From Ruditapes philippinarum (Eukaryota), in the NCBI RefSeq assembly GCF_026571515.1, contig NW_026864070.1, forward strand, positions 62,001 through 126,000: a stretch of DNA of 64,000 bases. Direction: 5' to 3'. This document shows positions 6,311-53,722 of this stretch, one piece after another. The position numbers were made by a program, and so were the translations under genes. Positions within the stretch are counted from its first letter, which is position 1, and every line of letters starts with the position of its first letter. The notes beneath the pieces were generated by a model, which saw only the letters and a program-made list of their open reading frames with translations, made no database searches and was not told where the DNA came from.

Positions 6311-6540
6311 CCTTGCCACTCACCTGTGGGATCAAGTCTTGTCATGGACGACTTGGAATTCTTTTATATGATGAAGATATCCAGCTAGCTTATTGAAGAT
6401 CGGTTGTTCTACTCAGATGTCCGTTTGTGTCTGAAGTAATGCACGAAGGAGCACATGAGGTCTTCCTTCAACAGTAAGGATGCAAAGATGCCATATGACC
6501 TTTAAAATGTTGATATGACATAAAACCCAACAACAATAGA
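6311..6540 (+). mobile_element. tRNA-derived SINE, 5'-truncated, just upstream of the acceptor of copy A
   Basis: Homologous to the fuller SINE copy at 22942-23210 (…TATCCAGCTAGCT…GCCATATGACC…AAACCCAACAACAA tail). Confidence 0.7.
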
Positions 6541-6598
6541 AAAATAATTTTTCTACTCATTTTATCAAAAATTCTATTTTTTTTATCTTTTCAGAACT

Positions 6599-9386
6599 AT
6601 GTCTGTAAGACGATTTTCCTTTTTCCTATACATGCTTTGTCCATTCATCATTCAAGTTGGAACCAAAAATGTCACGTGCCCTGCCTCATGTGAATGCGAC
6701 ACTTTCTTTGGAAAAAAAGAAGTAGGTTGTGCTAACCTCACTGATGTTCCGTCAAATATTCCCGAGGACACCAATTTGCTAGATTTAAGTGGGTGTAATA
6801 TATCCCACATTCATATTCAGCCGCTGGAAAAGCTCTTCAAATTACAAATCTTCACCTTTCAGGAAATAAATACAAATGATGAGAATTACAATCTTACAGC
6901 CTTGGACTTGCCACTTCTGAATGAAATAGTCGTCGATGGCGGCGTTTCAACTTCTATCCCACAGCTGTTACCATCTTATATTGGTACGCTTAGTGTTGCA
7001 TATAACAATCTAGGAACACTAAAGTCTGGTAGTTTTAAGAACTACCCAAACTTAGAAACGTTATTATTGTGGGACTGTATGTTAATGAAATTAGAAGCTG
7101 GTGTGTTGGATAATATTCCTTCTCTTTCAACACTTGAGTTTAATAGAAACAATCTAAAAGATGACAGTTTTCCGTTGGGCGTATTCAAGAAAAACCAAGC
7201 ACTTGACTCTGTTTCATTTTTTGCAAATGAATTGAAACACGTAGTGTCCAATCTTCCAAGTTCTGTTACAAGTGTCGATTACAGCGCCAATACCATATTT
7301 GAGCTTCGAGCTTACGACTTCAAATCTACGCCGAATCTGATATACCTGTATCTTCAACAGAATATGGTATGCAAATTTCTTTTAATATTAAAATGTCATC
7401 GTTGTTAGTTATACATGTATATAAAACCAGGCAAATATAACTCGCAAAACAAACAAACAAACAAACAAACGAAAACGCGAACAACCATAGAGATATTGCA
7501 GATATCGTAATTTCCTTATTTCATACCAAACAACAGCCCACAAACGTTATGTTTAAACCAGAGTTGCATTTGATGGGTTAGACATACTAATCTCGTTGGA
7601 TTTGAGTTACAATAACATCAATAAATTATAGCATCAGTGTAGTTGAAACTTATTAATTTTATTGCTTCAAATACACGTTAAAACCAGTGAACAAATTATA
7701 TCTACATATATATACAGTAAGTAAATTATGAGAGGGGTAACATGTTCTACTAACATTAGATTAAGTCCGTCGTAAGTAATGTACCCAAAACAAAAATGAA
7801 TCTGCATACATATAAACATAAAAATCTTTAAAAGTGGAGATCCCTCGAGAACAGTGAGGGGAAGTATTTTAAATATGTAAATTACAAACTCGGTTTAATT
7901 GAGTCTGATGGGAAGGGTAACGGTTTTCACTCCCCCTAGCACCGGCTTTAGCACATATCAATCTTCAACACCATTTAGTTTTAGAATCAGTGAGTGACCG
8001 CGAAGATGTAGAAAATTTCATAAAACTGAAATTAAGTAGGAACAGCTTATTACTACTGCCATACACCACTTGACATCTGGTGACCCAGGATATTTCATTG
8101 AATTTATTCAGACAGTGGCATTCAGTGTTGTGTTAAAGATAAAAAGTTAACAGCACTTTGTTAAGAGTCTCATATATTTATTGTATCCACATCAAAAGTA
8201 AAAAGCATCATATTGATAGCCAATACTATATGAGCTATTACGATACTTGTAATATATAAGTATTGATGAAAATACAGATCAGGACTCAATAGACCATATT
8301 GTTTTACCAGACTCCGTGTTCATCAGAATAAATCAAATAATTACCATTGTCCTTCCTCATAGATTAGATATCAACTTGAAAAAACTGTACTAGAAATAGC
8401 ATGCTTAGAATAAATTCATTGTTACATTTGCAAGGAATGGGAATTTACAGTTGATCTAAATACCGATCTTGATTCTAAAATTGATTCTTATTTTAATCCG
8501 TTATTTTGGTATCTGTTTTGTTATTCGTCCATTTCATGCAAAAATAGATTTTCTTTTTTGAATAGAGAAAATATTAATCCCTTACGAAAATCCAAAATGT
8601 CAAAATTGAAAATGTTGCAGAGTCGGTTTAATTGAGCATGTACAGTGCAAACTACCGTCCATGCCCCTAACACCGGCTTAAGTAGAATTCAACATTTAAA
8701 CATGAAATGGCAAAATTTTGAATTAATAAACATCCGCAGATGTATTCATATGGCGGTTATCATGAAATCATCATTTTATTACATTTTGAGTATGTACCAT
8801 TTAATTTTAGCAAAATTTAGGTCATTTTGAGTTTTATTGCACAGTGAAAATTTAGACAGGATCAGTTAATCCTGATATTTTCTAAGTGAACACAGGGCCT
8901 TCTACACTATGCATTTTCATTAAAATACGATATATCCATTATCGATTTATTATAATTTATTTGTTCTTCCGCATTTCTGCATGAAGCAGAACAATCACTT
9001 TTACATATTATTTTCAGATTAACCAGTTGAAGGACTTTACGTTTGCCGGCTTAACTTCACCTTTAGAGCTGAATTTGTCATATAACTGGATAACAGCCAT
9101 TGCCAAAGATGCATTCAAATCATTACAATCAAGCAAGATTGACCTCAGTTTTAATAAGTTACAAAGTCTTCAAGCTGAGGTTTTCTCTCATCTTACAAGC
9201 AGTGCTAATGTAAATCTGGGTGGCAACTTGTGGAATTGTGATTGTCACCTAAGATGGTTGAGAGAAGCACTAGACAATGCCACTTATACCATTGAGCTTC
9301 CGTACACTCTTAAATGTGCAACACCAGTCAAGCTCGCAGGAAAGTCTTTCATTGATCTTAAACCAAGCGATTTTGTGTGTATGTAG
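6599..9386 (+). CDS. Secreted LRR-only protein, copy A (predicted 378 aa; exons 6599-7366 and 9018-9386; exon 2 destroyed; one LRR deleted in exon 3)
   Basis: Signal-like N-terminus, LRRNT CPASCEC..EVGC, LxxLxLxxN repeats and LRRCT NLWNCDCHLRWL..CATP..FVCM*. Acceptor AG 6593-94, donor GT 7367, acceptor AG 9016-17; phase-0 join keeps the frame. Confidence 0.8.
7564..7648 (+). pseudogene. Relic of LRR exon 2 in copy A (acceptor and donor ends deleted)
   Basis: TTGCATTTGATGGGTTAGACATACTAATCTCGTTGGATTTGAGTTACAATAACATCAATAAATTA matches the interior of exon 24530-24745. The flanking TTTCAG and AAG|GTAAAT are absent. Confidence 0.8.
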
Positions 9387-10243
9387 GACAAAATTTCATT
9401 ATTCAAATAGATATTTTATATTTCAAATTTGAGCAGACTTTTATATGTAAATTGCTTAATCAGATAATAATTATGTACTAGACACACGGATTAGAAAACA
9501 TTGTTCAATGTTTCATACTTCATTTATTATTTTACGCTTTCCAGTCGGAGAGACAAGAGGCAATCTTCATAACGTAAAATATCTCTTTTTTCCGAACCAC
9601 ATTTTGAATGTGTAATACATCAATTACTACAATTTGCATGTTTGAAAACTTGTAAAAAATTAATACAGGCACAACAACATTGAAAAGATATAATATTGTT
9701 TTGAACCGAATACACAACTTTGCGAGTAACAATACAATATATTTAGAGTTTAAATTGATCCTGAGTTGCAATAACATATAATAATACTTAAAGTACTGAA
9801 TAAATGAGGTTTAGAAATTTTGAAAAATTTTGATTGTTGTATTCCTTGTATCATCCGGTAATTTTTTTTGGCCAGTGCTATAGTACGTGAGAGATGTTAC
9901 ACTTTCAGACTACTGAGTAAAGCCTAGTCCTCAATTTTATAGCTAGTATTTGTTGATGCTTTCAAGACAAAGGTCTATGTTCTTCATCATATAGTGCAAT
10001 TAGTGTTTTTGACATAATCTGAATAGATTTTGACGTCGTTTATGGCATCAAATGAATCGAATTGATCTTTATCAATTTTCGAAATCATCTCATGTTTAAT
10101 GCCGTTTTTCATACAACTGCAGGTGTTTTTGTTTTGTGGCACTTGTAAAAGTTGCTCCTTATTTCTCTCCAGTATAGTTATATTTTTTATATTTTGATAA
10201 TTCATTCTAATACTTCACTGTGTTGCTGTTTTGATAACGTTAA

Positions 10244-10827
10244 GGTAGTACACCCTAATGCACTATCTCCACTTTGAAGAGTATTTAAATAGGCTAGAAT
10301 CACTGTCAAGTGTATTGAAACACGGTAAAAGTATTTTATATTTTGCAAGACCAACCAATATACATTAAAGAAAATTTAGGCAAACTTTGAAAACAGCCCC
10401 TTATTGTGGAAAACTTTTGGGCTTTTGGGATATTTCAATTAAGGCTTTTTATGTAGGGAAATGGTCAAATAAGTGTTTAAAGGGGGTGGGGTAGGGTTAC
10501 AATTTTTTTTACATATTTAAAACATTTCGTTTAGGAACTATCATTTTGCTCGTTTAATTTGCTACCTGAATGTCATTATTTGTTTCTTAACAATGAGCAA
10601 TAGGAAAACATTTTTCATAACGATGTTATTACAGATTATTTAGAGTTTCCTGATTTCTGAAAAAAGCCCTTCTAATGGCAAAGTTTTAGTTCAGAAAAAT
10701 TCCCATAACTCATAAACCACATGGTAAATATTGTTTAAATTTTGCATACAGGTGACATTTAAGGCATATAACTGTCCTATGATGTCAATTTTACATTTCC
10801 TCATAGTGTCATTAGGGGTGTACTACA
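10244..10827. mobile_element. Non-autonomous TIR element with TTAA target duplication (Kolobok-like GG..CC ends), internally deleted
   Basis: TTAA|GGTAGTACACCCTAATG…CATTAGGGGTGTACTACA|TTAA. The empty site ATAACGTTAAT is seen at 20140 and 36160. Confidence 0.8.
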
Positions 10828-12735
10828 TTAATCCAGGTGCCACGGAACGTAGTGTCGTTACACTTTACTCTTTCTCTTAAGAACAAATTCCAGTACCGTC
10901 CATGAACAGACATAATAAAAAATGATGAAAAAAAATGAACACAATCCCCACATGACCAAGCAACAAAGGACTAGCGGCAAGGAGCCAAGCAGGACCCCCA
11001 ACAAAAAACAGGGTAGAGCACAAGGCAAACTGAGCCTGCATTGTTTAAATTTTGCCGTGTTTGCCGTTCTTCGGGGATTATGTTTTCCTCTCTTTCATAC
11101 AATTTCCGATACATCCCGTGTAAAGCTATATTTTTTACCATGGACATTCACCCTCGACATTATTTTAGCTCAAATGTTTTTTCTTTCTCTGTTAGTTTGT
11201 TGTTTTTTGGTTTTTTTTTTGTTTTTTTTTTGTGGGGTTGGGTAATTGTCAACTGTCCTTAACGAATAATTATTTTGCAATAAAGAATATGAATATTTTT
11301 ATAAAATATATTAAATCATACATATGCATAGTGTGTAGCTGGAATACAGATATAGTTACCCGCACTCCAGAGCATTGGCCCATTTTTTCTGAGGTTAACT
11401 TATTTGACAACAGAGATAAGGATAGCGATAGAAATATCGTATTCAAAACCTCGTTCATTGGTTTCTTTTTCTCAGGTTTCAACATTATTGTGACAACATG
11501 GAACGTGTTTTACTTTTTGCCTATGAAATAAAAGAGAAAAACATCAAAACACTGAGGAACAAATCAGATAGCCTCGAGTTTCGATGCTCTTTCTAGTATA
11601 TAACGTTTTCGAGGGCGTTTTTTTATGTCTCACAATACTTTATTTTGATGGTAATATAACATACAGAAGGTAATTGTTAAAACTGCATTATACACATTAT
11701 GTGAAATGACGTGAATTTTGACTAAATTCTTCAATCAGATTAATAGTTTACATATAGTAATTACAAAAGCAAAAACAACTACAACCACATTTTTAAGTCT
11801 TAATCCTACACATGCCATTTAAATTTTGAATATGTTCAATACAGAGATAGAATTAGCTTTTTTTACATTATATCAGTTTTAGTTTTGTTTTGCCAAGCAC
11901 ATTGGGTTACGAGTATATGAGCTTATAAACACGAGGTGTTAAATTGTACATACAGCATACCCTTAATTTAATGATAACGAAAAGTGTTTGTAGGTAATTA
12001 TTAAGAACAAAACATATACAATTAACTTAATGATAACGAAAACTGTGTGTAGTTAATTTGAAGGACATCTTTACCTTTCTAAAGCTGAACGTTTTGCATA
12101 ATTTATATACAATCAAGATATTATCGCCATTTTTATAACATATACTTTTGAAACATAATAATACTGCTTTACTATACTATTACATTTTATTTCTCTTCTC
12201 CTTGTCTATTATTTATATCTGTCACTCAAAGTTACTATAGTTCATTAAAAAAAATTATTGTTTACCCTTGACCTGCTGAATATTTGTAAAAGATTTATTC
12301 CGGTTCCAAGTCAATATTTGAACTGAGCCTGGTAAGACTACACGGATGTGCATGTTAGTCTGGATCTATACTGGTGACAAAGGGTTATCATTTTCAAGAC
12401 CAACAGGGAACACGTTAAGAATGTCTTATAAAATGTAATAATATGATGTTCAGTTATGTCCAACCTACTCAGTAGTTTGTAATGATATTGAATGACAGTG
12501 TACATATATTTTTTGTGTTTGTTTTTTGTCTGATAATTTCTCGTTTATAAATCTACTGAATTGTTAAGCAAAATAAGATGTTTTGTTACATATGATATAC
12601 TATACATAAATATTTGATACTTATTATTCATTATGTTTGTTCCTTTTCATAAATATTTTGATCCTATTTATAGATATTTTGTTTCTATCTATAGATATTT
12701 TGTTACTATTTATAGATGTTTGTTACTATTTATAG

Positions 12736-13777
12736 ATGTTCTTACATGGACGAAGATTAACAAAGGTGTATGAGGAGATAGGTATGGCCGTGTTACCTGA
12801 CGAGTATCTGCCTGATGATTATGAAGGTCCTAATGTCGGCTCATGTGAGAAAATAGTCGGTATATAGCTTTATTTGTGTATTTGTGTATTAGTAGGACAT
12901 TGATTCTCGAAAAAAGAAAACAACACAGAATATTTTACCTTCAAGACATATTGTCGAAAACCGTCAGTCTCTCCTCATTAGATAACAGATACAAAGTACA
13001 AGTTTGTAAAAAATAAGAAAGGTGAAAATTGGAGAAACACCAATTACCTTAGTATTTCCATGTTGGGCTTTCTTTAAGGATTCTTTTTTATTCTCTATAT
13101 TATTTTGTTGGTAGAAATTATGGCTATTCAAAGCATTGTTAATTAAAAGTGAGTTTATAAAGCATTCCTGGTCATTCATACAATCTATACATATTTAAAA
13201 GAAGTACCAGAAGCGACAGAAAGTATCACACTACCTATAACAGTATATTCAAACTATATTTATTGTATTGAGATGCTTTGCGTATATCACAGTTTTTTCA
13301 TAAGGAATTCAGCAAACTAATATTGGTAGATAAGCAAACTAAAATTGATAGATAATTATAAATTAATGATTGTTAAAATAATGAAAAAGTTCCGAGAAAA
13401 TAGTTAAACTAATTCTATAGATATAGACATTTATTGAAGATTTACTGGTAAGTATTTGTGACACGTATTGGCCAGCCTGTGTTCAAGTGTAAAAAGCATC
13501 TTTTATTTCCTCAATATTTTGAGAGCAAACATTTTGGAATATTTTGAACAAAAATTAGCTAGTGTGTTAACTCTTTGATTCATTCTACAAAATAGAGTGA
13601 CACATTTTCAGCGTTTGTTATATTTCATTGCAGTCAAAATGTTAGTAGACATGCAGAGCGATGTTTTTCGTGAATATATAAAACATCTCTCAAGTGACAA
13701 ATATGGGGTGGACCTAGAAGAACGTAAAAATTGCTGACACACCAGTTGCTTCGTTTAGAAAACTAAATATAGACTTG
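12736..13777 (+). pseudogene. 3' fragment (last two exons, 12736-12859 and 13634-~13777) of a CRAL-TRIO alpha-TTP/clavesin-like gene
   Basis: TATAG|MFLHGRRLTKVYEEIGMAVLPDEYLPDDYEGPNVGSCEKIV-G|GT, then TGCAG|..KMLVDMQSDVFREYIKHLSSDKYGVDLEERK(+1 frameshift)ADTPVASFRKLNID. Phases match (G+TC). The HG..LPxEY motif is typical of the CRAL-TRIO C-terminus. No upstream exons found. Confidence 0.75.
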
Positions 13778-14980
13778 CAAGATATTACACGTGAGACTCG
13801 TGCATTTTCGTTACAAGTATTAAAATGGGATTATTTGCATATCGTATATTATACATATATTAGAATTTGACAATGTTGCGATTAATTTTGTATTATGAAA
13901 AGTAACGTATGTCAATAAGGCTGAAAAACGTACCATAATACTTAAATCAATATAACAGGCTCGGAATATTTCAGAAGTTTAAATAGCTACATGAGGTACA
14001 AAACGTTACAACTGGTGACAAAAATGATAATGTTGTTAACATTTATGTTCATTATTTCTTATGTCCAGGAAAGATTCAACGATGCAAAATATATGTTTAT
14101 TTGAATGCAACTTTCTCCTGATTTTTATAATTGTCGTTTATTACGAACCCTACTTTTCATTTGAACATTTGTATTTTTATAAAGGCATGTAGTGAACTTT
14201 TATTAAGATTTAAGTAACCGGTACAATATGTCCCATTCTTTTTGCATTTCATTAGATAGGTTAAGGCATAAAATTCTTCAATTTTCAGATAGCCTTTTGA
14301 TGCTTAAGTGTCTGTTAATGTGTATGTGCTTCTAGTTTGTCCACTTAAACATTCTTTTCAATGTAAAAAAAAGTTACACCCCCCAAAAAAAAATTATACA
14401 CCTTTTATTGTTTGGTTATAAAAATCTCCTGCGATCTAGGCTATAATTTAGCTTTGTTTGTATCAAACTGTGGCCTATTTTAAATGTACTTTATACTTCT
14501 TCCGTATACATACCGTGTCAAACACTACATGATAGAAATTTAAATGTAGGTCAGACGCTAGCATTTATTTTCCCATAGACTTACATTATGAGAGATGGTC
14601 ACTTATCCCACATTAAATTTGAGCTTTCCTGCTGAAGAAGTGATTTTTCTAGGAGAATGAAATGCCTGACACATAAAAATGACAAATTGAATTGAAATTT
14701 TCTGCTGATCACTGGACTGACATGCACTGTTTATTAATGCAAATATCCAAGTAAAAAATAATCATAGAGAATCATGAAATATTTCATTTTCTTTAGAAAA
14801 CAATACAGTGTTAGATTCTAAATTAGTTTTCATACTTAAAAACATCCCATTTTCTTCCAATCACCTCATGTCCCACTGAATCTTATGGTTTTATGTACAG
14901 ATTCAATCAAACCATGTCTGCAATTCTCTTGTAATTTTGTTGTGATTAATACTTCCGAGGGATCACTTTGTTTCCAGATT

Positions 14981-15267
14981 TTTATACTTCACAACAGCAG
15001 GTGTCAAGTGCTGTGTGGCAGCTGTAAAAAGTTGCCCCGTTCTTCACTTCAGTGTTGTTATATTTTTCTGGTCCTTCGGGATCATAGATGCCAGCACTAT
15101 TAAGTGTTGAGAATTGAGTACCGCTCAAGCCGGTGCTAGGGGGCGTGAGGGATTTGCACGTATTCATTATCCCTCATGAACAGACTCAATCAAACCGAGA
15201 CTGCAATTCTCTTGTAATTTTGTTTTGATTAATGCTTCCGAGGGATCACTTTGTTTCCAGATTTTTT
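14981..15267. mobile_element. ~290-bp unclassified non-autonomous element (full-length copy, preceded by a partial copy at 14890-14980)
   Basis: Near-identical to the reverse complement of 52150-52440. Absent at the matching unit-2 position (~39830). Older partial copies lie at 3400-3630, 18070-18275, 25255-25470 and 30360-30580. Confidence 0.75.
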
Positions 15268-16448
15268 TTCTTTTTCCCTGCACTTTTTTAGCCAATCGCT
15301 GGCGATGTTGCAACGCAAAAGTATGACCTGCATTGGTTTTTTTTATTGTTTTAAGTGTATAATGCTGTATCTTATGAAATATTGCTATAAAATCATTCAA
15401 CAGTAAAATTATATTGCTGAATCTTATGATCCATTCTCGAAAGATTTGTAACATAGAATGCACACGGATAACGTTTTAATTAACAAACATTTTATAGTGT
15501 TGAAAAAATAGAAATCTATTTATTTACTTATTTACTTGTTTGTTTGATTATTTATTTATTTATTTATTTTCAAATTAAAGTAATACTCAGTATACAATCA
15601 AAAATCATTTATGATAAGTTTATCAATCTAAACAGCAAAACTTTCATTCAGCTTAGAAATACAAAACTTTGTGCAAAAAGCAATATTTTCTATTAATATT
15701 TTTTATCTCTTCTTTTTACAGTTTTTTGCATTTGTTTTTGAAAAGTACAAGTAGTTTTAACCGCTCCAAAATGTAAGAAACATTTTTAGTTTATCTGCAA
15801 ATGAAGTTAATTATAAAGAAACATTTTTTTAGATTTAAAACAAAATAACGGCGCGAGTGTTTGACCTTAAATATATAAAATTCAAGAATGCCATATTTTG
15901 TTTTGGTGTTACAACACTTTGTTTCTATATATTGGTTGTTATCAGCGTGAATTATTTTGATGATATGCGTTCCTAGATCCGCTGGTATTAGGCTTCAGGT
16001 ATTCCATTGATGTATATATTCTTTCATTTCATACATAAATAAAAGAGGAAGTCTTCTCCTATTTCTACAAATAGTTACTATGGAATTTTTCAGGCACGTT
16101 ACGCTTATTCTTTTAAGATTAAACAAAAGATATTCATTCTGCAAGTTTGAAACACAAAACGGATTATAAAATTGATGAGTATTTTCCAGTTTATTTAATA
16201 ATTTAACTCATCTCTCATCACATGTAAGTATTCTTTAAAACTATTTCTTTTTTCTCATTATTAAAACATACAATGTAAATTATTTAATTTAGACTGTTTA
16301 TAACAATGGTCATATATATGATTATACTATCTAAGATACCAAGCATACACCACCTTTTCATCATATGAAAAATATATCTCGAGCCCGATGATTCGAACAT
16401 TACAATTAATTTATACTGAAATAAACAAAAATGAAGAGTATGTTTAAT

Positions 16449-16740
16449 GAGACGTGCATGGCCGATAGAAGAGCACATGAGACCTTTCTCCACAAGTAAA
16501 GCTTATTAACCTCGAACCACTTGCCCTTCACCTCTGGGTTCCTATCTTACTATCAAACTAGCATATGGAATGTCTGTGGCTCTACTCAGGTGCCAGTTTG
16601 TGATTGAGATAATGTACAGAGGATCACATGAGGTCTTAAAGCTAGGGTTAGGGTTTACTTCAAACAGTCAAGCTGAAAAGTCGCCATATGACATTTACAA
16701 AGTGTCGGCGTGACTTAAACACAACAACAACAACAAGAAA
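16449..16740 (+). mobile_element. tRNA-derived SINE upstream of copy B
   Basis: Same family and same position relative to the acceptor as in the other five copies; (CAA)n tail. Confidence 0.65.
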
Positions 16741-16789
16741 AACATTATATTTATTTTAAAAATTCTGCTGTTTTTATATTTTCAGAACT

Positions 16790-19291
16790 ATGTCTGTAAG
16801 ACGATTTTCCTTTTTTCAATATATGCTTTGTCCGTTCATCGTTCAAGCTGTAACCAAAAATGTCACGTGTCCTGCCTCATGTGAATGCGATATTTTCTTT
16901 GACATAAAGGAAGTAGAGTGTGCTAACCTCACTGATGTTCCGTCAAATATTCCCGAGGACACCAATTGGCTAGATTTAAGCGGGTGTAATATATCCCACA
17001 TTCATATTCAACCGCTGGAAAAGCTCTTCAAATTACAAATCCTCACCTTTCAGGAAATAAATACAATTGACGAGAATTACAATCTTACGGCCTTGGACTT
17101 GCCATTTCTAAATGAAATAGTCGTCGAAGGCGGCGTTTCTACTTCTATCCCACAGCTGTTACCACCTTATATTGGAACGCTTAATGTAGGAGAAAACAAT
17201 CTAGGCACTCTAAAGTCTGGTAGCTTTAAGAACTACCCAAACTTAGAAACGTTAACTTTGTGGGACTGTATGTTAACGAAATTAGAAGCTGGTGTGTTGG
17301 ATGATATTCCTTCCCTTTCCTCACTTGAGTTTCATAGCAACAATCTAAACAAAGACAGTTTTCCTTTGGACGTATTCAAGAAAAACCAAGCACTTGACTC
17401 TGTTTCATTTTTTGATAATGAATTGAAACACGTAGTGTCCAATCTTCCAAGTTCTGTTACAAGTGTCGATTACAGCGACAATGCCATTTTTGAGCTTAGA
17501 GCTTATGACTTCAAATCTACGCCGAATCTGATATGCTTGTATTTTCTACAAAATATGGTATGAAAATTACTGTTCATGTGAAAATGTCGTCATTGTTAGA
17601 GATATATATAAAATCATGCATGTAATACTCTAACAACAATCGCAAAACAAACAAACAAACATAGAAAGCATATATTAATATATCTATTTGTCTTTTTCTT
17701 ACTGCATTGAGGTTTTATTATTAAGTCATAAAATGTCATGTTTAGTCATTTGATTACTAGATTTTACAAGAACGATATTTTTACAAAGGAGTATTAGTAA
17801 ACGTAAACGACCATGGAGTTTAACTTTAACTCCATTATGGGCCCCTTTTAGTTCTTATTATTTCACTTATTTCATGTCCTTCCCCTTCTTTCACCACCCT
17901 TGATTCCTCTACCGGTTTTGGTTCGGTGCACTCTGGGTGCCCTGCTGTTGTAGGGGGCTGCATCCTGTGAACGTTCCCTTTGCCTTGTTGATCTTTGTTC
18001 TCGTTTGTTTTCTCAATAAATTAAATCTGATGGAATGTGTAAGTATTCTCACGTCCCATAAGAACGGCTCTGTGTTGTTATATTTTTCTGGTACTTCAGG
18101 ATCATTGATGCCAGCACTATTAAGTGTTGAGAATTGAGTACTGCTCAAGCCGGTGCTCGGGGGCGTGAGGGATGTTGCACTCATTCATTATCCCTCATGT
18201 ATAGACTTAGTCAAACCGAGTCTTCAATTTACACGTAATTATTTTGTGATTAATGCTTCCGAAGGATCACTTTGTCATAAAGCAACCTTCAAAACCATTA
18301 TGTTTTGGCATTAGTGAGTGACCGCGTAGGTCTAGAAATGTCTTGTTTACTAAACTGAAGTTAAGTAAGAGCAATTTTAACACCTGCCACACAGCACTTG
18401 ATACCTGCTGACCCCATAATATTACGTGACTGAATTGAGACAAACAGTAACATTCAGAATTGTTGTTAAATGTCAAAAGTTAGTAGCACTTTGTTAATAT
18501 TCTATTATACAAGATAATAATGAACAACATTTCATAATTCTATTATTTTTTTTCATGTTATTAATAAAGTACATCTATTATATTCACTATCCACAAAAAA
18601 GTAAGTAAAATATCATATTGATGCATACATATGTGTTTACTACCATTATTAAAATTTGTGTTGGTTCTAAGAGTAGTTTCGAAGTGAATATTAGTATTGA
18701 TACAAAAATAAATCATATAGACCATACTATAATACCTGTTTCTAAACTCATGCATGTTCATTAATATTCTTATATCATTATACTATCAACTATTTGTCCT
18801 TCCGCATTAAATCATGAAGCAGAACAATCATATTTACATAATATTTTCAGATTGCACATTTGGAGGACTTTACCTTTCAAAGCATGGTCAATTTACAAAT
18901 CCTGGACATGAGTTACAACAATTTATCTGCAGTTACTAATAATACGTTTGCCGGGTTAACTTCACGTTTATGGCTGAATTTGTCATATAATTGGATAACA
19001 GCCATTGCCCAAGATGCATTCAAATCATTGCAATCAAGCAGGATTGACCTCAGTTTTAATAGGTTACAAAGTCTTCAGGTTGAGATTTTCTCTCATCTTA
19101 CAAGCACAGCTAATGTAAGACTAGCTGGCAACTTGTGGAATTGTGATTGTCACCTAAGGTGGTTGAGAGAAGCACTGGACAATGCCACTTATACCATTGA
19201 GCTTCCGTACACTCTGAAATGTGCAACACCAGTCAAGCTCGCAGGAAAGTCTTTCATTGATCTTAAACCAAGCGATTTTGTGTGTATGTAG
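16790..19291 (+). CDS. Secreted LRR-only protein, copy B (predicted 402 aa; exons 16790-17557 and 18851-19291; exon 2 cleanly deleted)
   Basis: Both exons are open (768 and 441 nt) with canonical GT at 17558 and AG at 18849-50. At ~17820 the intron jumps from CCATGGAGTT to sequence found downstream of exon 2 in copy C (~25000). Confidence 0.8.
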
Positions 19292-23280: not shown

Positions 23281-26200
23281 ATGTCTTTTAGACGATTTTC
23301 CTGTTTTCTATACATGCTTTGTCCGTTCATCGTGCAAGCTGTTACCAAAGATATCACGTGTCCTGCCTCATGTGAATGTGAAACTATCTTTGGCGCAAAG
23401 GAAGTAGATTGTTATAACCTCACTGATTTTCCATCAAATATTCCTGAGGACACCAATTACCTAGATTTAAGTGGGTGTAATATATTCCACATTCCTATTC
23501 AGCCACTGGAAAAGCTCTTCAAATTACAAAGGTTCGCCTTTCAGGAAATAAATACAAATGAGGATAATTACAATCTAAGGGCCCTGAACTTACCACTCCT
23601 GAATGAAATAGTCGTCGATGGCGGCGTTTCAACTTCTATCCCACAACTGTTACCACCTTATATTAGTACGCTTAGCGTAGCAGAAAACAATCTAGGCACT
23701 CTAAAGTCTGGTAGCTTTAGAAACTATCCAAACTTAGATTCGTTATTTTTGTCGGACTGTATGTTAACGAAATTAGAATCTGGTGTGTTGGATGATATTC
23801 CATCTCTTTCATTACTTCAGTTTAATGACAACAATCTAAACGAAGATAGTTTTCCTTTGGACGTATTCAAGAAAAACCAAGCACTTGAGTCTGTTTCATT
23901 TTTTGATAATGAATTGAAACACGTAGTGTCCAATCTTCCAAGTTCTGTTACAAGTGTCGATTACAGCGGCAATGCCATTTTTGAGCTTAGAGCTTATGAC
24001 TTTAAATCTACACCGAAACTGATATACTTATCTTCAACAAAATATGGTATGAAAATTACTGTTATGNNNNNNNNNNNNNNNNNNNNNNNNNNNNNNNNNN
24101 NNNNNNNNNNNNNNNNNNNNNNNNNNNNNNNNNNNNNNNNNNNNNNNNNNNNNNNNNNNNNNNNNNNNNNNNNNNNNNNNNNNNNNNNNNNNNNNNNNNN
24201 NNNNNNNNNNNNNNNNNNNNNNNNNNNNNGCAAAACAAACCAACAAACACAGAAACCATAAATTAAAATATCGTTATCTGTTTTTTCTTCTAACTGAATT
24301 GAGGTTTTGAAAATTATTAAATTATAAAATGTCACGGTTAGTCATTTGATTACTAGTTTTTACAAGAACGATATTTTACAAAGGAGTAGAAACTAAACGA
24401 AAACGCAAACGACTATGGAGTTATTACAATTATTAGAATTTCCCTTGCTCATACCAAGGTCTCCACAAACAACAGTCTACAAATGTTATGTTTATACCAG
24501 AGCTGAATATATTACAACGTTTATTTCAGATCACAAATGTTGAAGACTTTGCGTTTGATGGGTTAGACAAACAAATCTCGTTGGATATGAGTTACAATAA
24601 CATCAATAAATTAAGCAGAAACACATTAGCTGGGTTAACAGGAGCGTATTCACTACATATGAGTAGTAATAACATAAGTGTTGTGGATAAAGATGCATTT
24701 ACACAACTCGTCTCTTTACATGATCTCAAACTAGACCAAAACAAGGTAAATATTAAAAAGAATCCTCTTGATTAAACTAATCTTATTTTATTGCTTCAAA
24801 TACACGTAATAACCTATATAAAAATTACAACAACATGTAATATATTGGTTAGGTTACAAGTTCTTCTAACACTAGATAAAGCCCTTCGTATGTCATTACC
24901 CAAGAAGAAAATTGTGTCTGCACACAAATAAACAAACAAATCGGAAAGAAGGGAGATCCCTCGAGAGCAATGAAAAGAAGCAGTTGTCCCTTGTCCCTTT
25001 AATTCCCTTATGGGCCCCTTTAAGTTTTTATCATTTCACTTATTTCATGCCCCTCCCCTTCTTTCGCCACCCTTGATTCATCTACCGATTTGTTTCTGTG
25101 CCTTCTGGATGCCCTGATGTTGCAGCAAGGTGTTGGGGGGCTGCGTCCTGTGAAGGTTGCCTTTGCCTTGTTGATCTTTGTTCTCGTTTGTTTTCTCAAT
25201 TAATTACATGTGATGGAATGTGTAAGTTTTCTCACGTCCCTTAAGAACGGCTCAGTGTTGTTATATTTTTCTGGTACTTAGGTATCATTGATGCCAGCAC
25301 TTTTAAGTGTTGAGAATTGAGTACCGCTCAAGCCAGTGCTAGGGCACGTGAGGGATGTTGCATTCATTCATTATCCCCCATGTACAGCTTTAGTCAAACA
25401 AAGTCTGCAAATTTCATGTAATTCTGTTGTAATTAAGTCTTCCGAGGGATAACTTTGTTTCCAGATTTTTAAGCATAAATCAACCTTCAACACCATTATG
25501 TTTTTGCATCTGTTAGTGAACGCGTAGGTATAGACAAAAAACAATTTACTAAACTGAAGTAAAGTAAGATCATTTCTTAAACCTGCTTTACAGCACTTGA
25601 CACCTGCTGACTCCATGATATAACGTGATTGAATTGAAACAGACAGTAACATTTTATATTGTTGTTAAATGTCAAAAGTTAGCAGCACTTTGTTAAGACT
25701 CTGTTATACAAGATAATAACGAACAACATTTCATAATTCTATTTTTTGTCATGTTATTAACAGAGTACCTTTATTGTATCCACTATCCACATAAAAAGTA
25801 AGTAAAAATCATATTGATGCATACATATGTGTACTTCCATTATTAATATTTGAGTTAATACAATACTTTTATTCTAAAAGTAGTTTCTAAGTGAAAATAA
25901 GTATTGATACAAAAACAAATCATATAGACCATACTATAATACCTGTTTCTAAACTCACGCATGTTCATTAATATTCTTAAATAAATTTGTTATAAACTAA
26001 TTGTCTTCCGCATTTAAGCCAGAAGCAAAACAATCATATTTACATAATATTTTCAGATTGTACATTTGGAGGACTTTACCTTTCAAAGCATGGTCGATTT
26101 ACAAAACCTGGACATGAGTCACAACAATTTGTCTGCAGTTACTAATAATACGTTTGTCGGGTTAACTTCACTTTTATGGTTGAATTTGTCATATAACTGG

Positions 26201-26497
26201 ATAACAACCATTGCCCAAGATGCATTCAAATCATTACAATCAAGCGACATTGACCTCAGTTTTAATAGGTTACAAAGTCTTCAGGTTGAGGTTTTCTCTC
26301 ATCTTACAAGCACAGCTAATGTAAGACTAGCTGGCAACTTGTGGAATTGTGATTGTCACCTAAGGTGGTTGAGAGAAGCACTGGACAATGCCACTTATAC
26401 CATTGAGCTTCCGTACACTCTCAAATGTGCAACACCAGTCAAGCTCGCAGGAAAGTCTTTCATTGATCTTAAACCAAGCGATTTTGTGTGTATGTAG
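23281..26497 (+). CDS. Secreted LRR-only protein, copy C (exons 23281-24046, 24530-24745, 26057-26497; 474 aa if a 2-nt deletion near 24030 is an error, otherwise a pseudogene)
   Basis: All splice sites are canonical, and exons 2 and 3 are intact. ATACTTATCTTC here versus ATACTTGTATCTTC in B' and C' gives a -2 frameshift about 35 bp from an N gap. Confidence 0.7.
24067..24229. other. Assembly gap (N run) in intron of copy C
   Basis: N run. The corresponding stretch in C' (~51095-51153) is short and TA-rich. Confidence 0.9.
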
Positions 26498-27384: not shown

Positions 27385-27508
27385 CAATCACAGTTTGAAG
27401 AGGCCCAGCACTTGGGCCTTTGTAATCATCTTGTAGATATTCAGTTGGTATTAATGACTTGTCAATATCTTTATTAATACTAACCATTGTGTTACCATGG
27501 ATCTTCAG
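27385..27508 (-). pseudogene. Orphan exon of a second CRAL-TRIO paralogue (minus strand)
   Basis: KIHGNTMVSINKDIDKSLIPTEYLQDDYKGPSAGPLQTVI-G. It is 124 nt, the same length as and homologous to 12736-12859. The donor is mutated (G|ATAAG) and the acceptor is deleted relative to the 54781 copy. Confidence 0.75.
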
Positions 27509-33532: not shown

Positions 33533-35285
33533 ATGTCTGTAAGACGATTTTCCTTTTTCCTATACATGTTTTGTCCGTTCATCATTCAAGTTGGAACCAA
33601 AAATGTCACGTGCCCTGCTTCATGTGAATGCGACACTTTCTTTGGTAAAAAAGAAGTAGGTTGTGCTAACCTCACTGATGTTCCGTCAAATATTCCCGAG
33701 GACACCAATTGGCTAGATTTAAGTGGGTGTAATATATCCTACATTCATATTCAGCCGCTGGAAAAGCTCTTCAAATTACAAATCTTCACCTTTCAGGAAA
33801 TAAATACAAATGATGAGAATTATAATCTTACAGCCTTGGACTTGCCACTTCTGAATGAAATAGTCGTCGAAGGCGGCGTTTCAACTTCTATCCCACAGCT
33901 GTTACCATCTTATATTGGTGAGCTTAGTGTAGCATATAACAATCTAGGCACTCTAAAGTCTAAAATCTGGTAGTTTTAAGAACTACCCAAACTTAGAAAC
34001 GTTATTATTGTGGGACTGTATGTTAATGAAATTAGAAGCTGATGTGTTTGATGATATTCCTTCTCTTTCAACACTTGAGTTTAATAGAAACAATCTAAAA
34101 GATGACAGTTTTCCGTTGGATGTATTCAAGAAAAACCAAGCACTAGACTCTGTTTCATTTTTTGCAAATGAATTGAAACACGTAGTGTCCAATCTTCCAA
34201 GTTCTGTTACAAGTGTCGATTACAGCGCTAATACCATATTTGAGCTTCGAGCTTACGACTTCAAATCTACGCCGAATCTGATATACCTGTATCTTCAACA
34301 GAATATGGTATGAAAATTACTTTTAATATTAAAATGTCATCGTTGTTAGTTATACATGTATATAAAACCAGGCAAATATAACTCTGAAACAATCGCAAAA
34401 CAAACAAACAAACGAAAACGCGAACAATCATAGATATTTTACAGATATCGTAATTTCCTAACTTCATACCAAACCATCCACAAACAACAGCCCATCAATG
34501 TTATATTTATACCAGAGTTGCATTTGATGGGTCAGACATACTAATCTCGTTGGATTTGAGTTACAATAGCAATAAAGTATAGCAGTAGTAGTGTAGTTGA
34601 TAACGGTGCATTTAGAAAACTGTTGTCTTGACATGATTTCAAACTAGATTAATAAACATCCGCAGATGTATTCATATGACGGTTATAATGAAATCATCAT
34701 TTTATTACATTTTGAGTATGGACCATTTAATTCTAGCAAAATTTAGATCAATTTTAGTTTTTATTGCACAGTGAAAATTTAAACAGGATCATTTGATCCA
34801 TCTTTTCTAAGTGAACACAGGGCCGTCTAAACTATGCATTTTCATATAAATTATTAAATAAATTATTTGTTCTTCCGCATTTCTGCATGAAGCAGAACAA
34901 TCACTGTTACATATTATTTTGAGATTAACCATTTGGAGGACTTTACGTTCGCAGGGTTAACTTCACCTTTAGAGCTGGATTTGTCATATAACTGGATAAC
35001 AGCTATTGCCAAAGATGCATTCAAACCATTAAGATTGACCTCAGTTTTAATAAGTTACAAAGTCTTCAGGCTGAGGTTTTCTCTCATCTTACAAGCAGTG
35101 CTAATGTAAATGTAGGTGGCAACTTGTGGAATTGTGATTGTCACCTAAGGTGGTTGAGAGAAGCACTGGACAATGCCTGGACCTATACCATTGAGCTTCC
35201 GTACACTCTCAAATGTGCAACACCAGTCAAGCTCGCAGGAAAGTCTTTCATTGATCTTAAACCAAGCGATTTTGTGTGTATGTAG
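33533..35285 (+). pseudogene. LRR copy A', pseudogene (exons 33533-34307 and 34924-35285; exon-2 relic ~34518-34650)
   Basis: 7-nt duplication TAAAGTC/TAAAATC at ~33960 (frameshift), 10-nt deletion at ~35030 (ACAATCAAGC), +3 nt at ~35178, and acceptor weakened to TTTTGAG. Shares the 72-nt LRR deletion of copy A. Confidence 0.85.
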
Positions 35286-42489: not shown

Positions 42490-45400
42490 ATGTCTGTAAG
42501 ACGATTTTCCTTTTTTCTATATATGCTTTGTCCGTTCATCGTTCAAGCTGTAACTAAAAATGTCACGTGTCCTGCCTCATGTGAATGCGACACTTTCTTT
42601 GGAATGAAGGAAGTAGATTGTGCTAACCTCACTGATATTCCGTCAAATATTCCCGAAAACACCAATTGGCTAGATTTAAGCGGGTGTAATATATCCCACA
42701 TTCATATTCAACCTCTGGAAAAGCTCTTCAAATTACAAATCTTCACCTTTCAGGAAATAAATACAAATGAAGAGAATTACAATCTTACGGCCCTGGACTT
42801 GCCACTTCTGAATGAAATAGTCGTCGATGGCGGCGTTTCTACTTCTATCCCACAACTGTTACCATCTTATATTGGTGCGCTTAGTGTAGCATATAACAAT
42901 CTAGGAACTCTAAAGTCTGGAAGCTTTAGGAACTACCCAAACTTAGAAACGTTAAGTTTGTGGGACTGTATGTTAACGGAATTAGAAGCTGGTGTGTTGG
43001 ATGATATTCCTTCTCTTTCCTCACTTGAGTTCAATAGCAACAATCTAAACGAAGACAGTTTTCCTTTGGACGTATTCAAGAAAAACCAAGCACTTGACTC
43101 TGTTTCATTTTTTGATAATGAATTGAAACACGTAGTGTCCAATCTTCCAAGTTCTGTTACAAGTGTCGATTACAGCGACAATGCCATTTTTGAGCTTAGA
43201 GCTTATGACTTCAAATCTACGCCGAATCTGATATACTTGTATCTTCAACAAAATATGGTATGAAAATTACTGTTCATGTGAAAATGTCGTCATTGTTATA
43301 TATATATACTTATATATAAAACCATGCATATAATTCTTTCAAAAGAATTGCAAAACAAACAAAAACACATAGAAAGCATAAATAAACATAGCGATATCTG
43401 TCTTTTTCTTACTACACTCATGTTTTGGCAATTATTAAATCACAAAATGTCACGTTTAGTCATTTGATTACTAGATTTTACAAGAACGATATTTTTACAA
43501 AGGAGTATTAGTAAATGTAAACGACCATGAAGTTATTACATTTATTAAAATTTCCTTAGCTCATACCAAGGTATCCACAAACAACAGTCTACAAATGTTT
43601 ATACCAGTGTTGAATATAAATATTACAACGTTTATTTCAGATCACAAATGTTGAAGACTTTGCTTTTGATGGGTTAGACAAACAAATTTCGTTGGATATG
43701 AGTTACAATAACATCAATAAATTAAGCAGAAACACATTAGCTGGGTTAACAGGAGTCTATGAATTACATATGAGTGGTAATAACATCAGTGTCGTAGATA
43801 AAAATGCATTTAGACAACTCGTCTCTGTAAATGATCTCAAACTAGATCAAAACAAGGTAAATATTACAAAGACTCCTCTTGATGAAACTTATTTCTTTTT
43901 ATAGCTTCAAATACACGAAATAACCAATATATAAATAACAACAACACGTAAACATCAAAATATTGGTTGGGTTACCATGGCAGAGTTATGCCCCTTTTAC
44001 TTTGAAAATAATATGAAATTTTCAGTTTCCGTCCATTATCTCCCCAACGGTACAACACATTCAACTCAAACTTGACAAATGGATATGTCATGAGAATTCG
44101 AATTTGGTCATGGTTTGATGATTTTTGGCAGAGTTATGCCCCTTTTACTTTGAAAATAATATGAAATTTTCAGTTTCCGTTCATTATCTCCCCAACGGTA
44201 CAACACATTCAACTCAAACTTGACATATGGATATGTCATGATAAAATACAGGTCAAGTACGATTTTGGTTATGGTTCAATGATTTTTTGCAGAGTAATGT
44301 CCCTTTTACTTTGAAAATAATGTGAAATTTTCAGTTTCTGTTCATTATCCCCAATAGTGTTACATATTCAACTCAAATTTGACATATGGATATGTCAAAG
44401 GAATGCGCAGGTCAAGTTGGAATTTGGTCATGGTTCGATGATTTTTGGTAGAGTTATGTCCCTTTCACTTTGAAAATAATTTGAAATTTTCAGTTTCCAT
44501 TCGTTATCTCCTCTAGGGTATTACACATTCAACTCAGATTTGACATATGGATACGTCAAAGGAATGCACAGGTCAAGTTTGAATTTTGTCATTATTCAAT
44601 GATTTTTTTGCAGAGTTATGCCCCTTTAACTTTGAAAGAAAAGAAATTTTCAGTTCCCTTTCATTATCTCCCCAACATATTCAACTCAAATTAAAGATAT
44701 GGATATGTCATAAGAATGCATTGGTCAATTTCGAATTTAATCATGGTTTGATGATAGCTGGCAGACTTATCTCTCTTGAACTTTGAATTTTAAGTTTACG
44801 TTCATTATCTCCCCAATGGTTGTACACATTCAACTTAAATTTCACATATAGATACATCTTAGGAATAAGCAGTTCAAGTTTGAATTTGGTCGTGGTTCAA
44901 TGATTTTGGACAAACTTATCTTTCTTGAATGTTGGAAAAATTTTGAATTTTCAGTTTCAGCACTCATACTTTTGTGGAAATGTATGTGGCCATTATTTTG
45001 GCTACAAATATGCAATATGCAATTTACAAAAGGTTAAGACTGAATAATTTCAGTGCCTTTAACAGTGTATAACAATGGTTTATGTTAACATTGAATAGTT
45101 TTAAGGTCTTGGCATGATGACACATTTCTAGTTAATACTCTATTATACAAGATAATAACGAACAACATTTCATAATTCTATTTTTTGTCATGTTATTAAT
45201 AGAGTACATTTATTGTATCCACTATCCACAAAAAAGTAAGTAAAATATCATATTGATGCATACATATGTGTTTACTATCATTATTAAAATTTGAGTTGGT
45301 ACACTACTTTTATTCTAAGAGTAGTTTCGAAGTGAATATAAGTATTGATACAAAATCAAATCATATAGACCATACTATAATACCTGTTTCTAAACTCATG

Positions 45401-45939
45401 CATGTTCATTAATATTCTTATATCATTATACTATCAACTATTTGTCCTTCCGCATTTAATCATGAAGCAGAACAATCATATTTACATAATATTTTCAGAT
45501 TGTACAGTTGGAGGACTTTACCTTTCAAAGCATGGTCGATTTACAAAACCTGGACATGAGTTACAACAATTTATCTGCAGTTACTAATAATACTTTTGCC
45601 GGGTTAACCTCACTTTTGTGGTTCAACTTGTCATATAACTGGATAACAACCATTGCGCAAGATGCATTCAAATCACTCAAATCAAGCGACATTGACCTCA
45701 GTTTTAATAGGTTACAAAGTCTTCAGGTTGAGGTTTTCTCTCATCTTACAAGCACAGCTAATGTAAGACTAGCTGGCAACTTGTGGAATTGTGATTGTCA
45801 CCTAAGATGGTTGAGAGAAGCACTGGACAATGCCACTTATACCATTGAGCTTCCGTACACTCTCAAATGTGCAACACCAGTCAAGGTCGCAGGAAAATCT
45901 TTCATTGATCTTAAACCAAGCGATTTTGTGTGTATGTAG
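42490..45939 (+). CDS. Secreted LRR-only protein, copy B', intact full-length form (474 aa; exons 42490-43257, 43641-43856, 45499-45939)
   Basis: Exons of 768, 216 and 441 nt are all open, with phase-0 GT-AG introns. Signal peptide, LRRNT, ~16 LRR strands, LRRCT, and a stop right after the last Cys-Met. Confidence 0.88.
43980..44960. repeat. ~160-bp tandem array (~6.5 copies), Helentron/HINE-like internal repeats, in the last intron of B'
   Basis: Units begin CAGAGTTATGCCCCTTT at about 43981, 44129, 44290, 44450, 44610, 44762 and 44910. Absent from the other copies. Confidence 0.8.
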
Positions 45940-50300: not shown

Positions 50301-53300
50301 ATGTCTTTTAGACGATTTTCCTGTTTTCTATACATGCTTTGTCCGTTCATCGTGCAAGCTGTTACCAAAAATATCACGTGTCCTGTTCTCATGTGAATGT
50401 GAAACTATCTTTGGCGCAAAGGAAGTTAGATTGTTATAACCTCACTGATGTTCCATCAAATATTCCTGAGGACACAATTACCTAGATTTAAGTGGGTGTA
50501 ATATATCCCACATTCCTATTCAGCCACTGGAAAAGCTCTTCAAAATTACAAAAAGGTCGCCTTTCAGGAAATAAATACAAATGAGGAGAATTACAATCTA
50601 AAGACCCTGAACTTACCACTCCTGAATGAAATAGTCGTCGATGGCGGCGTTTCAACTTCTATCCCACAACTGTTACCACCTTATATTTAGTACGCTTAGC
50701 GTAGCAGAAAACAATCTAGGCACTCTAAAAGTCTGGTAGCTTTAGAAACTATCCAAACTTAGATTCGTTATTTTTGTCGGACTGTATGTTAACGAAATTA
50801 GAAGCTGGTGTGTTGGATGATATACCATCTCTTTCATTACTTCAGTTCAATGACAACAATCTAAACGAAGATAGTTTTCCTTTGGACGTATTCAAGAAAA
50901 ACCAAGCACTTGACTCTGTTTCATTTTTTGATAATGAATTGAAACACGTAGTGTCCAATCTTCCAAGTTCTGTTACAAGTATCGATTACAGCGGCAATGC
51001 CATTTTTGAGCTTAGAGCTTATGACTTCAAATCTACGCCGAATCTGATATACTTGTATCTTCAACAAAAATATGGTATGAAAATTACTGTTCATGTGAAA
51101 ATGTCGTCATTGTTATATATATTTATATATAAAATCATGCATAAAATACTATTGCAAAACAAACCAACAAACATAGAAACCATAAATTAAAATATCGTTA
51201 TCTGTCTTTTTTTCTTACTGAATTGAGGTTTTTGAAAATTATTAAATTATAAAATGGCACGGCTAGTCATTTGATTACTAAGATTTTACAAAGAACGATA
51301 TTTTACAAAGGAGTAGAAACTTAACGAAAACGCAAACGACTATGGAGTTATTTTTTAAAATTATTAGAATTTTCCCTTGCTCATACCAAGGTCTCCACAA
51401 ACATCAGTCTACAAATGTTATGTTTATACCAGAGCTGAATATATTACCAACGTTTATTTCAGATCACAAATGTTGAAGACTTTGCGTTTGATGGGTTAGA
51501 CAAAAAACAAATCTCGTTGGATATGAGTTACAATAACATCAATAAATTAACGGGAAACACATTAGCTGGGTTAACAGGAGCGTATGAATTACATATGAGT
51601 AGTAATAACATCAGTGTTGTGGATAAAGATGCATTTAGACAACTCGTCTCTTTACATGATCTCAAACTAGACCAAAACAAGGTAAATATTAAAAAGAATC
51701 CTCTTGATTAAACTTATTTTATTTTATTGCTTCAAATACACCTAATAACCTATATAAAAATTACAACAACATGTAATATATTGGTTAGGTTACAAGTTCT
51801 TCTAACACTAGATAAAGCCCTTCGTATGTCATGTACCCAAGACAAAATTGTGTCTGCATACAAATAAACAAACAAATCGGACAGAAGGGAGATCTCTCGA
51901 GAGCAATGAAAAGAAGCAGTTGTCCCTTGTCCCTTATGGGCCCCTTTTAGTTTTTATCATTTCACTTATTTCATGCCCCTCCCCTCCTTTCGCCACCCTT
52001 GATTCATCTACCGATTTGTTTCGGTGCCTTCTGGATGCCCTGATGTTGAAGCTGAGGTGTTGGGGGGCTGCGTCCTGTGAAGGTTGCCTTTGCCTTGTTG
52101 ATCTTTGTTCTCGTTTGTTTTCTCATTTAATTACATGTGATGGAATGTGTAAAAAATTCTGGAAACAAAGTGATCCCTCGGAAGCATTAATCACAACAAA
52201 ATAACATAAGAATTGCAGACTCGGTTTGATTGAGTCTGTACATGAGGGATTATGTATAAGTGCAACATCCCTCACGCCCCCTAGCACCGGCTTGAGCGGT
52301 ACTCAATTCTCAACACTTTATAGTGTTGGCATCAATGATCCCGAAGGACCAGAAAATATAACAACACTGAAGTGAAGTACGGGGCAACTTTTTACGGCTG
52401 CCACACGGCACTTGACACCTGCTGTTGTGAAGTACAAAATTTTTCTCACGTCCCATAAGAACGGCTCAGTGTTGTTATATTTTTCTGGTACTTAGGTATC
52501 ATTGATGCCAGCACTTTTAAGTGTTGAGAATTGAGTACTTGCTCAAGCCAGTGCTAGGGCACGTGAGGGATGTTGCATTCATTCATTACCCCCATGTACA
52601 GCTTTAGTCAAACAAAGTCTGCAAATTTTCATGTAATTCTTGTTGTAATTAAGTCTTCGAGGGATAATTTTGTTTTCCAGATTTTTAAGCATAAACAACC
52701 TTCAACACCATTATGTTTTTGCATCTGTTAGTGAACGCGTAGGTTAAAGACAAAAAACTCTTTTACTAAACTGAAGTAAAGTAAGAGCATTTCTTAAACC
52801 TGCTTTACAAGCACTTGACAACATGCTGACTCCATGAAATTACATGATTGAATTGAGACAGACAGTAACATTCAGTTTTGTTGTTAAATGTTCAAAAGTT
52901 AGCAGCACTATTGTTAAGACTCTGTTATACAAGATAATAACGAACAACATTTCATAATTCTATTTTTTGTCATGTTATTAATAGAGTACATTTATTTTTC
53001 CAGCTATTTCCCCAAAATTAATTTAAAATTGAATTTTATTGATCCCAAAAATATTTTGATTACTATCATTATTAAAATTTGAGTTGATACAATACTTTTA
53101 TTCTAAGAGTAGTGTCGAAGTGAATATAAGTATTGATACAAAAACAAATTATATATACTATTACACAAGTTTCTAAACTCATGCATGTTTATTAATATTC
53201 TAAAATAAATCTCTAATAAACTAATTGTCCTTCCGCATTTAAGCAAGAAGCAGAACAATCATATTTACATAATATTTTCAGATTGCACAGTTGGAGGACT

Positions 53301-53722
53301 TTACCTTTCAAAGCATGGTCGATTTACAAAACCTGGACATGAGTCACAACAATTTATCTGCAATTACTAATGATACGTTTGTCGGGTTGACTTCACTTTT
53401 ATGGTTGAATTTGTCATATAACTGGATTACAACCATTGCCCAAGATGCATTCAAATCATTGCAATCAAGCGACATTAACCTCAGTTTTAATAGGTTACAA
53501 AATCTGAAAGCTGAGGTTTTCTCTCATCTTACAAGCACAGCTAATGTAAGACTTGCTGGCAACTTGTGGAATTGTGATTGTCACCTAAGGTGGTTGAGAG
53601 AAGCACTGGACAATGCCACTTATACCATTGAGCTTCCGTACACTCTCAAATGTGCAACACCAGTCAAGCTCGCAGAAAAGTCTTTCATTGATCTTAAACC
53701 AAGCGATTTTGTATGTATGTAG
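50301..53722 (+). pseudogene. LRR copy C' (exons 50301-51074, 51463-51681, 53282-53722); exon 1 frameshifted as assembled, possibly a real gene with consensus errors
   Basis: About 7 single-base indels in exon 1, mostly homopolymer length changes (GAAGTTAGA, CAAAATT, TATATTTAG, CTAAAAGTC, CAAAAATATG). Splice sites are intact; exon 2 (+3 nt, in frame) and exon 3 are open. Confidence 0.65.
52150..52440. mobile_element. ~290-bp non-autonomous element inserted in the last intron of C'
   Basis: Absent in copy C (25223 GTGTAAGTTTTCTCACG). Reverse complement of 14981-15267. Confidence 0.8.

Follow-up and report, generated by a model that had tools for sequence, protein, structure and literature searches.

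A 64,000-nt stretch of the Manila clam genome (Ruditapes philippinarum, RefSeq assembly GCF_026571515.1, contig NW_026864070.1, positions 62,001 to 126,000 of the forward strand; this whole stretch is called the window, and positions are counted from its first letter) carries six tandem plus-strand copies of a gene for a leucine-rich repeat (LRR) protein. The copies, A, B, C, A', B' and C', are arranged as two units of about 27 kb, ABC and A'B'C'. Our analysis revealed that exon 2, a middle exon encoding three LRRs, was removed twice by different deletions, once in A and A' and once in B, with the reading frame preserved. We further found that the exon itself is likely a gain of this lineage. 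The account as a whole, in which the exon was gained by duplication and lost twice in frame, A is selected, B is tolerated, A' is a pseudogene and the proteins bind ligands, is in our judgement probable, with considerable room for doubt.

Architecture of the array and the two losses of exon 2

The encoded protein begins with a hydrophobic stretch, followed by a cysteine cap (LRRNT), 16 LRRs and an LRRCT at the extreme end. As assembled, only one of the six copies, B', is an intact gene with three coding exons: the first at 42490..43257, exon 2 (LRR10-12) at 43641..43856 and the last (LRR13-16 and LRRCT) at 45499..45939. A splice acceptor lies 4 nt upstream of the ATG in all six copies, so "exon 1" denotes the first coding exon only. 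Exon 2 measures 216 nt with AG/GT borders in B' and in C (24530..24745), and introns 1 and 2 are both phase 0 and fall at one LRR position (QQNM|I and DQNK|I), as an earlier note, made from the letters alone, had described. That note also took exon 2 to be intact in C, B' and C'. The exon is indeed present in all three, but in C' (51463..51681) it is 219 nt long, with three extra A and in frame, and in the assembly the first coding exons of both C and C' carry frameshifts. C has a 2-nt deletion close to the end of its first coding exon (23281..24046), which adjoins one of the two N gaps in the assembly (24067-24229). C' has seven small indels in its first coding exon (50301..51074), single-base and clustered, which look like read error, possibly carried into the assembly. 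The last exons of C and C' lie at 26057..26497 and 53282..53722.

In A, an open first coding exon (6599..7366; putative signal peptide, LRRNT and LRR1-9) ends in a phase-0 donor and is followed by an exon-2 relic at 7564..7643; the corresponding relic of A' lies at 34518..34647. Common to both relics are a deletion of 47-50 nt across the acceptor and an overlapping internal deletion of about 55 nt (56 nt in A). The donor was lost separately, in A by an 87-nt deletion and in A' by a deletion that also took about 1.1 kb of intron. In addition, A and A' lack 72 nt, or one LRR, within exon 3, in frame in A at 9037|9038 of its open last exon (9018..9386), with the word TAC on both sides, and at 34943|34944 in A'. 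Owing to this extra deletion, A has lost four repeats and stands one below the ancestral count. A' is a pseudogene: its first coding exon (33533..34307) carries a 7-nt insertion, and its last exon (34924..35285) follows a GAG acceptor and carries further indels of -10 and +3, the +7 and -10 shifting the frame.

In B, the segment corresponding to 24423-24996 of C, 574 nt including exon 2, is replaced by 3 nt at 17821-17823 (junction 17820..17824). Its first coding exon (16790..17557) and last exon (18851..19291) are open. Exons 1 and 3 joined are free of stops in both short copies, giving 378 aa for A and 402 aa for B, and the predicted repeat counts are 12 for A, 13 for B and 16 for the intact copies. 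The intron flanks of the B deletion share 90% and 96.5% identity with B', as against 74% and 65% with A; they group with the exon-intact copies and not with A, and the two exon losses are therefore independent. Splice-dead relics in A and A', a different deletion of about 0.6 kb in B beside an intact B', open outer exons in A and B, and two separate losses that kept the frame had all been anticipated in the earlier note, and all were borne out here. The 72-nt loss in A and A', the frameshifts in A', C and C' and the upstream acceptor are additions to it.

Three other arrangements were considered and rejected. A single loss, with B descended from the A relic, was conceivable in that the B deletion covers the region of that relic, but the flank identities rule it out. 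The short last exon of A is not a hybrid of exons 2 and 3, its acceptor region being of exon-3 type. The A relic (7562-7722) still has AG at 7560-7563 and the word GTAAGT at 7717, and its inclusion would add a stop-containing exon; both candidate acceptors, paired with the donor-like site at 7717, lead to stops, which rules out a productive cryptic exon.

The closest database proteins come from the Manila clam itself. A search with the first coding exon of A returned five proteins labelled Ruditapes philippinarum among 455 candidates, and their clusters contain RefSeq models sited on one 145-kb contig. XP_060565146 (402 aa) is B with exon 1 joined to exon 3, at 100% identity, and XP_060565143 (474 aa) is B', with a match that covers the whole gene. 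RefSeq models also cover pieces of C and A', and three more 474-aa copies, known to us as proteins only, sit outside the window, so that the array holds at least nine copies. Its right end seems to lie near 55600, and the match of 358-2297 to the 3' flank of C (27482-29399) makes a further C-type copy likely just left of the window.

Exon 2 as a likely gain in a family of fixed length

A search of cluster representatives led to a 407-aa protein of Mactra that aligns to B with seven gap columns, and a profile search extended this to an LRR-only family of about 400-415 aa in clams, oysters, mussels, pearl oyster and amphioxus (P0098 and P0162-P0199 in our protein set; examples are Mactra KAL4233427, Mercenaria XP_053407746, Ruditapes XP_060600682, Crassostrea XP_022300173 and Branchiostoma KAI8477609). 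The names of its members are automatic only and mutually inconsistent, a literature lookup of six accessions yielded no paper, and the family appears to be undescribed beyond those names. A metagenome scan gave 53 pattern matches and no relative among them.

The array copies are length variants of this family, to which they belong by full-length homology, by the same caps and by the position of intron 1. The cysteines of the caps at both ends (C27, C31, C33, C44 and NxWxCxC...C) are invariant in 37 of 37 rows. The copies differ from the family in their identity to it of only 29-39%, in their number and in the three extra repeats of the intact forms; the array forms a fast-evolving offshoot nested near the Mactra/Mercenaria paralogue on a branch of 2.06.

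Measured from the first cysteine to NxWxCxC, the core is 325-329 aa long in 35 of 36 full-length relatives (396-436 aa, at least 89% covered, taken from 120 listed of 136 matches, with partial and distant matches and a 1213-aa Mytilus model set aside); the remaining one has no such motif. Four longer cluster mates have cores of 326-329 aa. Within the array, the 323-aa core of B approaches this length and has the 13 repeats of the family, unlike that of A (299 aa) and those of the four intact proteins (395 aa). Exon 2 is also an in-register paralogue of the start of exon 3: the top ungapped self-match pairs it with the first 72 aa of exon 3 at an offset of exactly 72, with 29 of 72 residues identical and a score of 135 (runner-up 83). 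In the tree, a branch (support 90/93, not starred) separates the exon-2 and exon-3 units of the array, which fall together, from 36 outgroup units. Among 14 partial proteins, seven, including one from the conserved 408-aa paralogue of the clam, cease to match at the position of intron 1 or no more than 6 residues away, which makes it likely that intron 1 is ancestral.

Since the outgroups lack exon 2 and their core is fixed at 325-329 aa, exon 2 is likely a lineage-specific gain, with B back at the ancestral length and the long form as the derived state. The earlier note had implicitly taken the long form as the ground state, and the outgroup lengths point the other way. One caution applies to the tree: the branch of the array is very long, and the clustering of its units may be attraction. 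In 33 of 36 comparisons the outgroup unit is nearer to exon 2 than to the exon-3 unit, so B would have retained the more changed copy.

We propose that a tandem duplication took in the end of the ancient intron, including its acceptor, and the first three repeats of the last exon, and that a new GT donor then closed the first copy to form a 216-nt phase 0-0 middle exon. Such an origin would place both introns in the same LRR register. The two different deletions would later have removed the exon in frame, leaving a 13-repeat B and a 12-repeat A beside the 16-repeat form, in an array that presumably evolves through birth-and-death with gene conversion. The first 22 codons of intron 2 (43857..43922 in B') weakly resemble the next coding repeat of the family (shuffle p 0.01-0.04 in three related copies with a purpose-made score), and comparable scores were also reached by 52-207 of 3612 GT-start controls. 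We regard a decayed remainder of a longer duplication at this place as suggestive only.

Selection on the short copies and competing explanations

A and A' diverged after the loss of the acceptor that they share, and their comparison therefore bears on the time after exon loss. Between them, dS is 0.084 and dN 0.017 (dN/dS 0.21; 20 synonymous and 15 non-synonymous changes; p = 1e-5 against neutrality), at a non-coding divergence of 0.061 with 9-15 indels per kb. A alone carries 5 synonymous and 3 non-synonymous changes (p = 0.017). At the non-coding rate about 5.3 frameshifts would be expected per lineage; we observed none in A and two in A'. These figures make it likely that A stayed under purifying selection after exon loss and is a selected gene.

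The proteins are LRR domains throughout: in each of three proteins, Pfam matched LRR families and no other domain. In AlphaFold models, B and B' each form one continuous solenoid (pLDDT 90.6 and 90.3, and 97 at the B junction), the best fold match being the LRIG1 ectodomain. Hydropathy shows a hydrophobic stretch at the N-terminus, less marked in B, and no later 19-residue window above 1.2; the proteins are likely secreted, presumably without a membrane anchor. Among eight copies (C' excluded), 35 of 80 sites on the concave face are variable, compared with 58 of 285 others (p = 7e-5), or with 41 of 163 when core positions are left out (p = 0.005), and pN/pS is 0.45-1.5 on the concave face and 0.2-0.4 elsewhere. 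This pattern would fit a ligand-binding surface, and binding of ligands by the concave face is likely. By inference from the scallop LRR-only proteins described in PMC5877582, a role in immune recognition is possible.

Several observations weigh against this reading of the short copies. The non-coding indel rate overstates the frameshifts expected in coding sequence, and gene conversion blurs dN/dS, with three of the eight non-synonymous states private to A' recurring in copies outside the window. Changes private to B are 4 synonymous and 15 non-synonymous, a neutral ratio that differs from the 9 and 5 of B' (Fisher p = 0.03); among those of B is L10Q in the putative signal peptide. Contigs from four of 24 listed runs were compared with 6500-19400, a stretch that leaves B', C and C' outside, and the resulting tables were filled by repeats (the rows shown cover 15 of the 328 joints, 24 of the 2461 loose ends and 32 of the 50738 pieces). 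The exon 1-exon 3 joints 7366>9018 and 17557>18851 were not among the 15 joints shown, an absence that is uninformative, as is the low cover of the first exon of A in X5 and X12 in a test so filled by repeats. A contig in X5, which we guess to be RNA, stops at the donor 17557 and continues for 76 letters elsewhere; it carries non-B letters of an exon-intact paralogue and hence supports the donor and not the B junction. Among four short candidates, no protein spans the B junction, the RefSeq model of A' excepted, and no database protein matched A in searches of the protein collection. Of the 13 array-type database entries none derives from Logan, compared with 8 of the 11 members in the cluster of the conserved 408-aa paralogue.

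Much of this could be explained if A and B were young pseudogenes, their exon losses being neutral decay of redundant copies and their open frames a matter of time. The neutral ratio in B, the frameshifts already present in A' and the lack of A- or B-specific transcripts among the joints and short candidates shown, and of a protein for A in the collection searched, all agree with this. On the other side stand the dN/dS of 0.21 and the absence of frameshifts in A where about five were expected, and the fact that each of the two in-frame losses removes an exact multiple of 24 aa. Moreover, C, which kept exon 2, has 2 synonymous and 6 non-synonymous private changes, so the ratio in B is not specific to short copies. 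We consider decay of both copies unlikely. The suggestion in the earlier note that A and B form functional shortened solenoids finds indirect support for A, where the substitution pattern points to selection; B does not share this sign, its private changes being at a neutral ratio despite an ancestral-like length and an unbroken modelled solenoid. We take B to be tolerated; it may be relaxed or else diversifying.

At the opposite extreme, the number of repeats itself might be actively selected, with 12-, 13- and 16-repeat receptors that would recognise different ligands and intact copies that would toggle between 13 and 16 repeats by skipping exon 2. The bias of variation to the concave face, the three repeat counts within one array and the selection on A would fit, as would the position of 5 of the 15 B-only residues on the concave face, two of them beside the new junction. 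However, two losses among six copies of an indel-rich array need no positive selection, because only in-frame losses survive. Selection of repeat number is in our view very unlikely. In a wider scenario, a family that had kept 13 repeats from amphioxus to oysters would have left this constraint behind in the lineage of the Manila clam, gained the cassette and amplified, and would now yield secreted receptors of 12, 13 and 16 repeats, through deletion in some copies and skipping in others, that bind differing microbial ligands on a concave face under diversification; this we hold to be decidedly unlikely.

An origin of the B deletion, or of the ABC/A'B'C' repeat, in faulty assembly (a mis-join, or two haplotypes placed in tandem) is highly improbable: the two N gaps, the error-like indels in C and C', the lack of a bridging contig across 17820-17824 among those shown and the high heterozygosity of the species (1.69% in the wild type, PMC6831834) would favour it, but there is no N near the B junction, the sequence on either side of it is B-specific, B contains 17831-18490, a segment absent from B', the same 145-kb contig gives three B-type and three C-type copies, exceeding two alleles, the units differ by 3-10% in non-coding DNA, and X1 yielded zero-difference contigs within the A intron and upstream of B.

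Comparable systems, flanks and repeats

Change of repeat number through symmetric LRR exons is already known. In the ROCO genes of Ectocarpus, PMC3341825 describes frame-symmetric LRR exons, inactivated LRR exons within introns and paralogues that vary in repeat number, all of which recall the clam array. There, in contrast, many one-repeat exons are shuffled, also to the opposite strand, whereas the clam has one three-repeat exon, probably gained once and lost twice. Symmetric exons that vary repeat number are likewise described for Tetrahymena (PMC6564038) and for vertebrate NLRs (PMC6642158), where, as in the clam, exon borders at a fixed LRR position let repeats drop and paralogues differ in number. 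NLRP3 varies by splicing and Tetrahymena has thousands of phase-2 exons, as these accounts have it, while the clam gene has a single cassette. Exon 2 of the array is a symmetric exon at a fixed LRR register, as in the NLRP3 type. In place of the many equal-length single-repeat exons of a shuffling array there is one three-repeat exon per gene, and the locus is for this reason not such an array. By description, the proteins can also be likened to scallop CfLRRop1-6, which the review PMC5877582 presents as LRR-only or secreted LRR proteins of an invertebrate, and to mosquito APL1, reportedly an invertebrate secreted LRR protein from a paralogue cluster with gene conversion. We found no published account of this array in the open literature, subscription papers and supplements lying outside the search.

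What is particular here is a likely gain followed by a double loss in a family of otherwise fixed length. The locus offers, side by side, the probable birth of a cassette exon from a duplicated acceptor and a new donor, its decay and two reversions. Near-identical proteins with 12, 13 and 16 repeats would allow a direct test of the effect of repeat number on ligand binding. With the process known from brown algae, ciliates and vertebrate NLRs, the surprise is limited.

The 3' flank of A is closest to B' (9038-11799 and 45591-48314, 96.6%) and that of B to A' (18943-21124 and 34944-37137, 96.3%), while the 5' parts differ in affinity; gene conversion or crossing over among copies would account for this. 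The outside model P0012 is closest to A in exon 3 (108/115), yet retains exon 2.

Immediately upstream of the first coding exon the copies carry a dispersed repeat (6321-6560 and equivalents), with an inverted copy at 57827-58060, and an Rfam search with it gave no match. The inverted copy has a head with words that we take to be A-box- and B-box-like, and so presumably resembles a tRNA-derived SINE. Tandem arrays occur at 29544-30126 (31 nt), 43980-44907 (about 161 nt) and 56127-57009 (about 169 nt), and the second of these, in intron 2 of B', takes the place of a segment found in B, C and C'.

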